IMG/VR virus record: IMGVR_UViG_2606217110_000007
Span: 1 to 5,701 of that record
Source of the DNA: a virus
Taxonomy: Duplodnaviria > Heunggongvirae > Uroviricota > Caudoviricetes
Reading direction: 5' to 3' (one strand)
Length of the DNA: 5,701 bases
Shown here: in pieces, positions 1,129-5,546 of the stretch
How positions within the stretch are numbered: the stretch's first letter is position 1
Layout: every line of letters starts with the position of its first letter
The notes under the pieces: generated by a model
Seen by the model: only the letters and a program-made list of their open reading frames with translations
The model's database searches: none
What the model was told of the DNA's origin: nothing
Translations under genes and position numbers: made by a program

Positions 1129-1542
1129 GCTTCATCTCCTCGTTAATGCGGACGGCCTCGGCTTCCAGTTCTGTAAACTGCGAAATAGCCACCCGTCGCA
1201 GCTCCAGTGGATTCAGTTTCCAGAACCAGGCAACATTGTAGAGTCGTTTCCGGAGGTGCTTCCCGTCTCCGACTGGGTAAAAAAACGCAGGATCTGCATG
1301 CTGGTCTTAAAAATATCCAGTTTTGCCATCTGCGCCGCCGATGAACGCGGGATCCCCGCCAGCAACGGGATATATTTCAGTGCCACCTGGCTGTCCAGTT
1401 TAATACTGCCTTCACCGGAAATAATGAAAGGAAAACCCAGCGCCTCGATTTCGTCATACGTGGGCTCGCGCAACTCCAGCACATGCAGCATTTCGTTATG
1501 CGCTGTCACCGGTTTTTTTAAAACAATTTCTGTAACGTTCAT
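1121..1542 (-). CDS. Tail assembly chaperone, long form made by programmed -1 ribosomal frameshift (G/GT-like)
   Basis: The slippery heptamer T_TTT_TTT (minus strand, 1285..1279) sits in the zero frame as CG[T TTT TTT] ACC. The -1 frame then stays open for 53 codons (YPVGDGKHLRKRLYNVAWFWKLNPLELRRVAISQFTELEAEAVRINEEMKHG) and ends at TGA 1123..1121, overlapping the tape measure ATG (CATGGCTGA). A possible 5-bp stem CGGAG/CTCCG starts 6 nt downstream of the heptamer. Frameshifting efficiency is not measurable from sequence. Confidence 0.5.
1213..1542 (-). CDS. Tail assembly chaperone, short (in-frame) form
   Basis: 109-aa ORF between the tail tube and tape measure genes, which is the conserved slot for the G/GT-type chaperone. 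Its ATG (1542..1540) overlaps the tube stop as TAATG, with GAGGGAGGA inside the tube 3' end acting as SD. Function is assigned by synteny and size, not by a recognised motif. Confidence 0.6.
   Translation of the reverse strand: MNVTEIVLKKPVTAHNEMLHVLELREPTYDEIEALGFPFIISGEGSIKLDSQVALKYIPLLAGIPRSSAAQMAKLDIFKTSMQILRFFTQSETGSTSGNDSTMLPGSGN
1279..1285 (-). promoter_or_regulatory. Candidate -1 frameshift slippery heptamer (U UUU UUU on the mRNA)
   Basis: Run of 7 T on the minus strand (7 A at 1279..1285 on plus), in phase X_XXY_YYZ with the chaperone frame and 23 codons before its stop. Confidence 0.45.
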
Positions 1543-1898
1543 TACTGATATCCTCCCTCTTCGCCGTGGAATTCAAGATCTGCCGTACCTTCTTCGGCAT
1601 TATGGTTAGCCTCCCCGTGCAGCCATGCAGCCGAAAGCACATACACCATGCCGTTTGCCAGTTCAGCGGTAATCGTCATCTGGTCTGATGTGGTAATTTT
1701 GTCGACCGGAAAGTTTTTGGGCACTTTAAACGTGCCTTTAACGTAAGGTGACCGCCAGGTCTCCTTGTAATCCACATCCCCTGCCATGCCGACAACATCA
1801 TCCCGGACATTGGTGTTCATCGGCACTTCAATGCCACCTGTCAGCGATAACTGCTGACCATCCACTTTAAAAAAACAGGTTCCGGCGATCTTTGCCAT
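1542..1898 (-). CDS. Contractile tail tube protein (Mu gpM-like)
   Basis: 118-aa ORF immediately downstream of the sheath gene. Its ATG overlaps the sheath stop as TAATG, with AGAGGAG upstream as SD. Size and position match Mu gpM (about 118 aa) and the sheath-tube pair conserved in myoviruses. Confidence 0.78.
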   Translation of the reverse strand: MAKIAGTCFFKVDGQQLSLTGGIEVPMNTNVRDDVVGMAGDVDYKETWRSPYVKGTFKVPKNFPVDKITTSDQMTITAELANGMVYVLSAAWLHGEANHNAEEGTADLEFHGEEGGYQ

Positions 1899-3394
1899 TA
1901 TGCTGACTCCTCTGAATACTGAAGACGGAACTGGTTAACCACCGCAAAGACACGTAACTGATTAACATAATCCGGCGGGAACAGCGTATTCAGTCGGTTC
2001 GGGTTATCCGCATCACGCTCAACTATCAGATACTGTTTAAACAGATCGTAATTTTCCACAATACCGGCACGCTCCATCTGACGATATGTCGCCAGAAGTT
2101 CCCCTTTGATAACGGCAGGAGTGACAATCGCCTGCCCCGGACCAAAACGGGTACCATCATTTGCCAGCTTGTGACGTCCGTACTTGCTTGTGATGACCGA
2201 TTTCAGTTTGCGAAGAACATATGCACTGGTATGCAGAGTTTCACTGTCCAGATAGCTGTTGTCTGCCACGCCATACGCATTCTTTTTGTAGGTGGTTACA
2301 GAACGCTGGATCCGCAACGTGCCGCCTTCCACATAAGCCGTCGCCACGCCGTGAGATAAAAGGGTCTGCTGCTCTGTCATGATGAATCGCTTACCTTTCG
2401 GTGCCGGAAGCATCCCCACCAGCTCCCCCGTCTGTGTCGGACGGGCAGGATCATTCCGGATAAATACCGCTTCACGGGCAAGGCGACTGGCAACCAGTTC
2501 ATCGACAGGCGACTGGGTTTCTTTTTCGTAACCGGCAAGCGTGATATGTTGCTGATTATGCATATCTCCGGCACCAACCAGCTCTGACAGCGTTCCCAGT
2601 TTTGCGGTATAGACATGCCCGTATAACTGGCGCGCATAACTCCAGCGACCGCTGCTGTCATTCATTTCGGTCATCATCATATTGATGGAGGCGGCATCGT
2701 TGAACGGCAGACCGATAAAATCGAATACCTCATCGCCCATAGCGGCAACAGCGGCGGTAAGATCAGGCGCTCCACTACCTGCAGTTCCGGCTTCCGTCAC
2801 GACCTGAAGTCCCGCAGGCAGAATTTCACCACCACCAGAACCATAATAATTCAGGCAGACAGGTAGCTCGTTACCATACAGCCCCTTATGACGGACAGTC
2901 AGTGTCACCACACCTGCATCAGATGACGCCGTAAACGGCAGGGTGATAACCCCATTTACCGCTTCCTTAATCGCGGTGGCAACCGCAGTGGCATTATCGC
3001 CATTCACCACAGGCACCTGTACACGGGAGCGCCCGACATACAGACTCAGGGTGCCGCTTTCCTCTGCTTCTCCGGTAACCGTCACCCTGACCGTTGCCGC
3101 CGCCCCTTTGGCTTCCGGTACCGCAATAACATACAGTTCACCGAAAGGATCTGTCTGACGGTATACTTCGACCATACGCGCCAGCTGGCTCCCCGCTCCA
3201 CAAATCTGACGGGCATAATCTGCCGACGGCATCAGCACCAGGCTGTTAACCTCAATGGCAGCATCGTTGCCTGCATGCCCAATCAGTAATGCAGGCGCGC
3301 TGGTCACCGCTGTATTTGCCGCAGAATTGTCCATCTCGGCGTAGAACAACGGCACCAGCGTATTCGACGGAACAGCACTAAAACTTATTGTCAT
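1898..3394 (-). CDS. Contractile tail sheath protein (Mu gpL-like)
   Basis: 498-aa ORF, the longest in the window, with Gly/Ala/Thr/Val-rich composition typical of sheath proteins (MTISFSAVPSNTLVPLFYAEMDNSAANTAV...). Length matches Mu gpL (about 495 aa) and it is followed by tube, chaperone and tape measure genes. Confidence 0.85.
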   Translation of the reverse strand: MTISFSAVPSNTLVPLFYAEMDNSAANTAVTSAPALLIGHAGNDAAIEVNSLVLMPSADYARQICGAGSQLARMVEVYRQTDPFGELYVIAVPEAKGAAATVRVTVTGEAEESGTLSLYVGRSRVQVPVVNGDNATAVATAIKEAVNGVITLPFTASSDAGVVTLTVRHKGLYGNELPVCLNYYGSGGGEILPAGLQVVTEAGTAGSGAPDLTAAVAAMGDEVFDFIGLPFNDAASINMMMTEMNDSSGRWSYARQLYGHVYTAKLGTLSELVGAGDMHNQQHITLAGYEKETQSPVDELVASRLAREAVFIRNDPARPTQTGELVGMLPAPKGKRFIMTEQQTLLSHGVATAYVEGGTLRIQRSVTTYKKNAYGVADNSYLDSETLHTSAYVLRKLKSVITSKYGRHKLANDGTRFGPGQAIVTPAVIKGELLATYRQMERAGIVENYDLFKQYLIVERDADNPNRLNTLFPPDYVNQLRVFAVVNQFRLQYSEESA

Positions 3395-3552
3395 GATTCT
3401 TTAGCCTTATCCTGTTTAACACGTACCACATCACACGCCGCTATACGGCGAAGCCAGTAGCTGCTTTCTTCCACATTTCGCCCGTCAGAAGGCAAAAGGT
3501 CTCCACGGGCAGGGTCAGGAACTGACCGCCCTTTCAGGGGTTTTACAAACAT
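3391..3552 (-). CDS. Small hypothetical protein (53 aa), not in the ORF track
   Basis: Open frame from ATG 3552..3550 to TGA 3393..3391 (MFVKPLKGRSVPDPARGDLLPSDGRNVEESSYWLRRIAACDVVRVKQDKAKES). Its stop overlaps the sheath ATG as ATGA, and it fills an otherwise empty 166-bp gap in a tightly packed operon. It has no convincing SD of its own, while the sheath gene has only a weak, distant one, which fits translational coupling. I recall a small ORF at the equivalent position between K and L in Mu. Confidence 0.3.
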   Translation of the reverse strand: MFVKPLKGRSVPDPARGDLLPSDGRNVEESSYWLRRIAACDVVRVKQDKAKES

Positions 3553-4669: not shown

Positions 4670-5024
4670 CCAGCTCCGTACACTCCAGCAGCAGAAAGCG
4701 CCGCGCTCCGTTCAGATCGCGCTGACGTTTCACCCGGTACACATTGTCATCACAGACCACCTCATAATCAGCGGTGATCCCCCGGCGGTAACGAATGGTG
4801 ATGTAATGGGTGATGGCGTCCCCGGTCTGCGCGGTTTCCTGCCAGGTGGTGGCACTGGTCTGGATAACCTTCGCCCATGCCCGGAACGTAACCGGGTATT
4901 GAGGCTCCACGCCAAAGTTATCCGCGGGCATATCCACCCGCTGGCGGATCAGGACGCGTTTATTCAGTTCACCGGGGTCCGGCAGAATGTAGGTTGCGCT
5001 GGTCTGCGCCTGACGAATTTTCAT
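4614..5024 (-). CDS. Head closure / head-tail adaptor protein (SPP1 gp16 / HK97 gp7-like)
   Basis: 136-aa ORF with the pattern I associate with this family (VTFRAWAKVIQTS...ITHYITIRYRRGITADYEVV...YRV...LLLECTE). It lies directly after the gp6-like connector gene, and its ATG overlaps the connector stop as ATGA. Confidence 0.68.
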   Translation of the reverse strand: MKIRQAQTSATYILPDPGELNKRVLIRQRVDMPADNFGVEPQYPVTFRAWAKVIQTSATTWQETAQTGDAITHYITIRYRRGITADYEVVCDDNVYRVKRQRDLNGARRFLLLECTELGAEEEMGGRRGSDSIFTR

Positions 5025-5344
5025 TGCGGGAAATACCTGTACGGGCCGACAAGCCAGTTAAAGCTCATTGGCAACTCCATTTTCTCAACGTCTGTAACCG
5101 ACGAGCGATTTTCGTAAAAATGGCTGATAAGCATCAGCATCCCCAGACGAATATCATCCGGCAGGTGCAGCCCGTCCGGATCGCTGTCCGGAATGGTTTC
5201 ATCCGGAGCATAGAGCTTCCGGTTCAGATACGTTTCCGTCCGCTTTTGCGCCGCACAGGCCAGCAGTTGCAGATGGCGGTTATCAGCATCGAAATCCTCA
5301 TCCAGCCGGAGTTGGGCTTTAATCTCTTCCATTGTCAGAAGCAT
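5021..5344 (-). CDS. Head-tail connector protein (HK97 gp6-like)
   Basis: 107-aa ORF whose N-terminus (MLLTMEEIKAQLRLDEDFDADNRHLQLLACAAQKRTETYL) matches the typical start of gp6-like connector proteins. AGAGGG lies 6 nt upstream of the ATG at 5344. Confidence 0.68.
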   Translation of the reverse strand: MLLTMEEIKAQLRLDEDFDADNRHLQLLACAAQKRTETYLNRKLYAPDETIPDSDPDGLHLPDDIRLGMLMLISHFYENRSSVTDVEKMELPMSFNWLVGPYRYFPQ

Positions 5345-5546
5345 ACTCAGCCCTCTTTACTGGTCGTGTTTTTTTCTCTTTTGCCGCTTTACTGCTTTTT
5401 GCACTGGTTCTGCGCTCTGCTAACCCGGCCTGAAGTGCAATCTCCTGCACCCGGGCAGGAAGCGCCCCCTCGTCATACTCACCGGCCCGAATGACCTCAA
5501 CACGCATACCGTCCGGTGACCATTTCAGATCTTGTTTCAGGATCAT
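5319..5546 (-). CDS. Small hypothetical protein (75 aa) with a Lys-rich C-terminus
   Basis: ORF from ATG 5546 (GGTGA plus 6 nt upstream) to TAA 5321..5319, overlapping the connector gene start by 26 nt. It sits between the capsid and connector genes. No family recognised. Confidence 0.45.
   Translation of the reverse strand: MILKQDLKWSPDGMRVEVIRAGEYDEGALPARVQEIALQAGLAERRTSAKSSKAAKEKKTRPVKRAEYASDNGRD

Follow-up and report, generated by a model that had tools for sequence, protein, structure and literature searches.

In phage lambda, two overlapping reading frames lie between the genes for the major tail (tube) protein and the tape measure, and a -1 frameshift at an in-phase heptamer near the end of the first frame, G_GGA_AAG, leads to the tail assembly chaperones G and GT. 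The slippery site of phage P2, which makes E and E+E', is a run of T residues, TTTTTTG. The lambda frameshift has been described by Levin 1993 and by Xu, Hendrix and Duda 2004, 2013 and 2014 (as cited in PMC5009743). G-T frameshifting is conserved widely among long-tailed phages, the efficiency of P2-type sites is 2-3 times that of the lambda site, and for the tail chaperone of Mu a -2 shift has been reported (PMC5009743). Here we analyze a stretch of 5,701 nucleotides from the IMG/VR virus record IMGVR_UViG_2606217110_000007 (the window), which is contig JNMR01000090.1 of Escherichia coli 3-267-03_S4_C2 (GCA_000700445.1) and belongs to a prophage of the SfV / SfIV / phiP27 / ST64B type, with an HK97-like head and a Mu-like contractile tail. 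An earlier reading of this sequence, called the original prediction in the following, had listed five runs of exactly seven A or T residues within coding sequences and regarded them as hot spots for transcriptional or translational slippage and for indels that could switch genes on or off. We find that the five runs very probably form a mixed set, with one functional frameshift site, in the tail assembly chaperone gene (1279-1285), and four by-products of coding.

The chaperone gene (1213-1542) lies, like every gene of the window, on the minus strand, and its lambda G-like / P2 E-like zero-frame product has 109 amino acids. The heptamer T_TTT_TTT is embedded in CGT TTT TTT ACC (codons 86-89, with the slip at codons 86-88), after which the zero frame continues for 21 codons. 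The -1 frame after the heptamer (1121-1285) is open for 52 codons, with a stop codon at 1121 that overlaps the ATG of the tape-measure gene at 1128, and the predicted chaperone fusion has 140 amino acids. For comparison, 131 related loci were collected with the tube protein, both in bacterial genomes and in viral contigs, and the addition of the window brought the set to 132 sequences. In 120 of these, an in-phase T_TTT_TTT or T_TTT_TTC is present, each with a -1 extension of 45-55 codons, and in 101 of these 120 site-keeping loci the tape-measure ATG starts 8 nt before the end of the -1-frame stop codon. The heptamer is retained at protein identities of 35-70%, and the codon in front of it (CGT, GGT, AGT, AAT or GTT) always ends with T. 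The motif L..A..W..NP..L..S..L..A..RI..E recurs among the 62 unique extension peptides, and the -1 frame is therefore coding. To judge from its phase and its conserved -1 extension, the run at 1279-1285 is a predicted programmed -1 ribosomal frameshift site of the G/GT type. The idea of translational slippage at the A/T runs is thus supported for this run, but not for the other four.

The arrangement is that of lambda in several respects, namely, the two overlapping frames between the tube and tape-measure genes, the in-phase heptamer late in the first frame, a -1 extension that ends at the tape-measure gene, and the lack of an obvious stimulatory RNA structure. In contrast to lambda, the tail module of the window is of the myovirus type, with sheath and tube, the heptamer is T_TTT_TTT, and no sequence similarity of the chaperone to lambda G was detected. 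As in P2, the phage has a contractile tail and the slippery site is a run of T residues. In Pfam, the chaperone matches Phage_TAC_7 (PF10109, tail assembly chaperone proteins 'E, or 41 or 14') over residues 6-75 with 29.9 bits, above the cutoff of 25 (E=5.9e-7), and it also matches phrog_166 ('tail protein'). However, the family match is weak (30 bits), and the -1 extension, the putative T-like domain, has no match in a Pfam search and only a weak match in PHROGs, to phrog_32181, a family of unknown function. Likeness to Mu is seen in the tail genes of the SfV/phiP27/ST64B type (DUF2635, the PF10618 tube protein, and a Pfam family that names Mu gp41), whereas the open and conserved frame of the window is -1.

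The order of tube, chaperone and tape-measure genes is also found in the RefSeq annotation of the E. coli ETEC6 prophage. In these prophages, RefSeq contains only the 109-aa 'phage tail assembly protein', and the 140-aa product is not annotated. The conserved 140-aa frameshift product could therefore be added by annotators. In one contig, IMGVR_UViG_2529292715_000008, the extension peptide is in another frame beyond YPVGDGKHLR, and a one-base indel close to CGGAAAC in the T-like region is therefore implied.

Mechanistically, a small share of the ribosomes would slip back by one base at T_TTT_TTT and would read the conserved 52-codon extension up to the start codon of the tape-measure gene. The outcome would be a short chaperone and a long fusion in a fixed ratio, as for lambda G and GT. 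The other four runs would represent Lys-Lys and Phe-Phe pairs in the host-preferred codons AAA and TTT next to a matching base. The run at 4123 would belong to an A-rich spacer that separates a Shine-Dalgarno sequence from the downstream start codon, and the run at 5369 would have been left behind when an A8 tract lost one base, a loss by which a small protein was altered in its dispensable C-terminal tail. At the DNA level, the runs would be ordinary hot spots for replication slippage, with rare length alleles at two of them. No evidence was found for programmed switching or for a coordinated or regulatory role of the runs, and four of them are not conserved. The functional element is of a well-known kind, and the current understanding remains unchanged.

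All five predicted runs exist, and the whole window contains no longer A/T run. Reading of the coding strand confirmed their genes and phases, while the run in the tube gene is located at 1869-1875, one base away from the predicted 1870-1876. Apart from the chaperone site, the runs are read on the minus strand as TTA AAA AAA CCG (1513-1519, chaperone codons 8-11), TGT TTT TTT AAA (1869-1875, tube codons 8-11), AGG AAA AAA ACA TGA (4123-4129, end of a basic 183-aa protein) and GAG AAA AAA ACA (5369-5375, in a 75-aa protein). The runs at 1279-1285, 1513-1519 and 1869-1875 have X_XXY_YYZ phase. This shared phase was considered as a meaningful feature and was rejected, because a run of seven that is formed by two identical codons has three possible phases, and because two of the three runs with this phase are not conserved. 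As predicted, the tube run meets a TAA at once in the -1 frame (0 open codons), and at 1513-1519 the -1 frame is closed after 5 codons. The assumption that only the first run has an open alternative frame was incorrect, because the -1 frames at 4123-4129 and 5369-5375 can also be read.

The original prediction further stated that five runs are more than expected by chance, and proposed a comparison with shuffled codons. This holds weakly, and the outcome depends on the null model. Dinucleotide shuffles of the window contained on average 1.44 runs of at least seven, and five or more occurred in 10 of 200 shuffles. When the order of codons was shuffled within genes, 1.45 runs were expected (P=0.013 for five). 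In contrast, synonymous-codon shuffles that keep the proteins gave an expectation of 3.2-3.5 runs (P=0.16-0.23 for five), and homologous 5.7-kb stretches of 94 related loci contain 0-7 runs, with a mean of 2.5. Those with at least five runs are mainly close relatives of the window. The window is thus at the high end of its relatives, but it is no outlier. Lys is encoded by 67 AAA versus 35 AAG codons in the window, and Phe by 43 TTT versus 19 TTC. Because the enrichment vanishes once the protein sequences are held fixed, the number of runs can be ascribed mostly to six KK or FF dipeptides in the preferred codons AAA and TTT. Counts of A7 and T7 should be judged against a null model that preserves the protein sequence.

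The runs at 1513-1519 and 1869-1875 look recent, lineage-specific, unconserved and incidental when the homologues are aligned. The former (L-K-K, chaperone codons 8-10) is an A7 in 24 of the 131 aligned sequences, all of which are close relatives; six relatives with at most 96% protein identity carry the synonymous TTA AAG AAA, and most chaperone homologues, the more distant ones, have LSKP, LTKP or LNHP at this site. The latter (C-F-F, codons 8-10 of the Mu-type tube gene at 1542-1898) is a T7 in 26 of the 131 aligned sequences, again in close relatives only, and most homologues have CYFK, with TGT TAT TTC AAA in 48. Some abortive shifting at the tube heptamer is likely, because its sequence is that of the real slip site, for which no stimulator appears to be needed. 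Nothing suggests that such shifting has been selected for.

The run at 4123-4129 is part of a gene junction, AAGGAAAAAAACATGA, which comprises the last codons of the basic 183-aa Neck1/tail-completion protein (4118-4669), a Shine-Dalgarno-like AAGGA, the A7 spacer, and the start codon ATG of the tail terminator gene (3561-4121), which overlaps the TGA (ATGA). Whole-window nucleotide alignments revealed that the junction is highly variable across the 131 loci collected by means of the tube protein, with AAGGAAGCATAAATGA and AAGGAAAAAGAAATGA as examples. An A7 is present at this position in none of the 131, while GGA followed by an A-rich stretch recurs. The -1 frame of the run coincides with that of the terminator gene and stays open over 187 codons, and therefore a slip would fuse the Neck1/tail-completion and terminator proteins. 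Usage of such a fusion is argued against, because the run is not conserved. As a separate observation, the GTG start of the 183-aa gene at 4669 results in a 56-base overlap with the head closure gene (4614-4669), and the public gene call has a later start and 174 amino acids, so that the true start is uncertain.

The run at 5369-5375 lies in a small head-module gene (orf75, 5319-5546) that belongs to phrog_1020, a family of unknown function. The product has 75 amino acids in the window, compared to 66 in the family. The phrog_1020 profile has 66 positions, and it is matched by the 66-aa allele over positions 1-66 with 147 bits and by the window allele over positions 1-65 with 137 bits. In the relatives, the TGA stop codon of orf75 is located 2 nt before the ATG of the gp6-like gene. 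E. coli 100117, the nearest relative, carries an A8 at the 5369 site and otherwise differs by one single-nucleotide polymorphism (SNP) over 5109-5701. Its allele reads GAG AAA AAA AAC ACG and so on, and the 66-aa protein ends with ...KEKKNTTSKEG-stop. In the window one A has been lost, so that the protein ends with ...KEKKTRPVKRAEYASDNGRD-stop after 75 amino acids and the gene overlaps the next one by 26 bases. The change from A8 to A7 swaps the last 7 residues of the 66-aa protein for 16 others, and the -1 frame of the run encodes NTTSKEG-stop, the ancestral C-terminus.

Length alleles at this position form the series A5GCC, A6GCC, A7GCC, A8C and A7C. In a pattern scan of IMG/VR, A6GCC was the commonest allele (114 of 120 among the matches listed), and the other alleles were A5GCC (14 contigs), A7GCC (2) and A7CC (1). 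The variants are found on several flank haplotypes, some of which are identical to those of A6 alleles, and therefore changes by ±1 base have arisen repeatedly. The A5GCC alleles form inherited groups with linked SNPs. The exact 75-aa protein of the window is rare, with 4 contigs versus 138, 785 and 304 for three listed 66-aa forms. It was considered whether the A7 of the window is a sequencing error, and this was rejected, because the exact protein occurs on four contigs, three of which were read and stem from separate assemblies. The A7 allele is therefore real and inherited. Relative to the window, 8 and 5 SNPs were counted in the contigs of the two other assemblies, and the 8-SNP contig spans all 5701 bases without gaps, so that all five runs have the same length in it. 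Another 75-aa allele, P0025 (...KEKKATTSKRAEYASDNGRD, 10 contigs), has acquired the same alternative tail by a frameshift downstream of the A-run, and in the 70-aa allele P0024 (11 contigs) the stop codon is read through. The generation of the same tail by a frameshift outside of the run indicates that the tail of orf75 tolerates change, and it does not mark the run as a switch.

An alternative explanation of the orf75 A7 is that of a compensated indel, in which a -1 slip of the ribosome or the insertion of one base by RNA polymerase would restore NTTSKEG, so that the 66-aa and the 75-aa proteins would both be made. A parallel is the G7 tract of the herpesvirus thymidine kinase gene, for which a homopolymer indel with possible compensatory frameshifting has been described (PMC5009743). 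In both cases an indel in a homopolymer of 7-8 bases shifts the frame, and a slip on the orf75 A7 would give NTTSKEG-stop; the orf75 change is, in contrast, limited to a short C-terminal tail. If this explanation were true, the A5 to A8 alleles across E. coli prophages would reflect selection for two C-termini and not neutral drift. By extension, translation of the tube gene would end early in a few percent of cases at its T_TTT_TTT, which has no stimulator, at a measurable cost that would be tolerated. We consider a compensated indel unlikely.

Variation in the length of the runs was also analyzed in populations, as suggested by the original prediction. At 1279, 1513 and 1869, none of 22 near-identical viral contigs had a changed length. 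In addition, 52 complete E. coli genomes with at least 95% identity over 1200-1950 were compared, and indels were judged from the lengths of the matched spans. With two exceptions, ETEC1746 and STEC384, these genomes had no net indel or in-frame indels only (+6 in many, -3 in one). The +6 class is a 6-base in-frame insertion within the tube/chaperone region, which is present in about one third of the 52 relatives (757 versus 751 bases).

In ETEC1746 (GCF_030013495.1; NZ_CP122727.1, 3004128-3004483), the sole one-base deletion in 1.35 kb affects the tube run, which is a T6, and the tube gene is annotated as 'frameshifted'. The locus is an Stx2e-converting prophage, and of 75 features in its 49 kb only the tube gene and one other are pseudogenes. 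The T6 is a credible inactivating deletion, to judge from the sequence, and if it is real, the prophage should give tailless particles. ST64B, which belongs to the same phage group and is 74% identical over the window, is a prophage that is defective because one of its tail assembly genes is frameshifted (PMC7067206). Here a natural one-base frameshift inactivates a tail gene, as the T6 appears to do in ETEC1746, but the gene is different from the tube gene of ETEC1746. The ST64B frameshift therefore shows that inactivating frameshifts do occur in this phage group. STEC384 (NZ_CP091029.1) has seven single-base indels within 1.35 kb, most of them in short homopolymers (2-3 bases), namely, the A8 at 1279 and six deletions, and each of the four genes that overlap this stretch (tape measure, chaperone, tube and sheath) is flagged as frameshifted. 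Its A8 was rejected as population variation at the slip site, because the six further one-base deletions and the four frameshifted genes are the signature of an uncorrected long-read assembly.

The proposed length variation has thus been found at two runs, orf75 and the tube T6, but not at the tail runs of the 22 viral contigs. Likewise, the view of the runs as indel hot spots is modestly supported by the length alleles at the orf75 run and at the tube run (1 of 52 close E. coli relatives), whereas these alleles are rare and inherited and do not represent frequent switches. Length differences at homopolymers of prophage structural genes can be real inherited alleles (the 75-aa form), possible inactivating mutations (ETEC1746) or assembly errors (STEC384), and these three cases must be distinguished before pseudogenes or phase variation are called.

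Several points weigh against the interpretation of the runs as one frameshift site and four coding by-products. A stimulatory RNA structure was sought 3' of the slip site with a fold of 94 nt, and the result (z=-1.5) was not significant, as it was equaled by 12 of 200 shuffles; downstream RNA structure is not required at lambda-type frameshift sites. Twelve of the 132 homologues, mostly from Gilliamella, Arsenophonus and other insect-associated bacteria, have no in-phase heptamer that is followed by a long -1 extension; a different site or frame may be in use there, or these prophages may be decaying. That a minor 140-aa fusion is made and is required for tail assembly is inferred from conservation, and its efficiency is likewise inferred. 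The count of the runs is nominally high under the codon-order and dinucleotide null models (P about 0.01-0.05). Moreover, 25 A/T runs of at least five were observed, versus 17-18 expected from synonymous shuffles (P=0.003-0.007), so that a mild general codon-context bias towards short A/T runs may exist; for runs of at least six and of at least seven no excess over the synonymous shuffles was found. Last, the T6 of ETEC1746 could be an assembly error.

It might be argued that the runs form a coordinated set of recoding sites, at which slippage of the ribosome or of RNA polymerase tunes the stoichiometry of the structural proteins. This predicts early-aborted translation of tube and chaperone, a Neck1-terminator fusion by way of the run at 4123, and a small protein with two alternative C-termini at 5369. 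The X_XXY_YYZ phase of three runs would fit, as would the identity of the tube heptamer with the chaperone site, which has no evident stimulatory structure, so that some shifting in the tube gene is likely. The -1 frames at 4123 and 5369, which are that of the terminator and that of the ancestral tail, respectively, would also fit. However, four of the runs are not conserved beyond close relatives, the Neck1-terminator fusion would depend on an A7 that is absent from all 131 loci collected with the tube protein, and the number of runs is explained by the protein sequences. Bacterial transcriptional slippage has been described on runs of nine A or T (PMC5009743), that is, on tracts of about at least nine bases, whereas all five runs have seven. 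The transcriptional slippage put forward by the original prediction is therefore not supported, and coordinated recoding is quite unlikely.

The explanation as one frameshift site among coding by-products has also to be weighed against phase variation, in which the runs would be contingency loci whose frequent and reversible changes of tract length switch prophage genes on and off. Length alleles do exist at two runs, from A5 to A8 in orf75 and as the T6 pseudogene of the tube in ETEC1746, and in the related prophage ST64B a frameshifted tail assembly gene has led to inactivation (PMC7067206). However, contingency loci vary frequently in length among near-identical isolates, whereas variants of the tail runs were found in 1 of the 52 E. 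coli genomes, the error-ridden assembly aside, and in none of the 22 viral contigs. At orf75 variation is also rare, with A6GCC in 114 of 120 among the matches listed, versus 14 A5GCC and 2 A7GCC contigs in all. The variants are inherited with linked SNPs and do not flicker. An on/off effect may be represented by the T6, which turns the tube gene into a pseudogene in a single case and is possibly an error. The orf75 changes affect only the last few residues, and P0025 receives the same tail outside of the run. Phase variation is thus very unlikely.

That all length differences, including the orf75 A7 of the window, are sequencing or assembly errors at homopolymers is extremely improbable, because, although STEC384 is clearly artefactual and the T6 of ETEC1746 is possibly an error, the 75-aa allele is found on 4 contigs, including other assemblies that differ by 8 and 5 SNPs, the A5GCC groups are inherited with linked SNPs, and the ETEC1746 prophage region contains only 2 pseudogenes among 75 features.

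The remaining genes of the window are also encoded on the minus strand. From the high coordinates downwards, the end of the major capsid gene (stop codon near 5596) is followed, after orf75, by the genes for the gp6-like head-tail connector (5021-5344) and the head closure protein (4614-5024), and, after the 183-aa protein and the terminator, by those for the DUF2635 protein (3391-3552) and the sheath (1898-3394). Tube and chaperone come next, and the tape-measure gene begins with the ATG at 1128. The window is mosaic. Compared to the ETEC6 prophage, the identity is 100% at positions 1-3250, 98% over the next 250 bases, and 64-77% at 3500-5345. Positions 5109-5701 are nearly identical to E. 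coli 100117, the tail genes of which are about 70-82% identical to those of the window.

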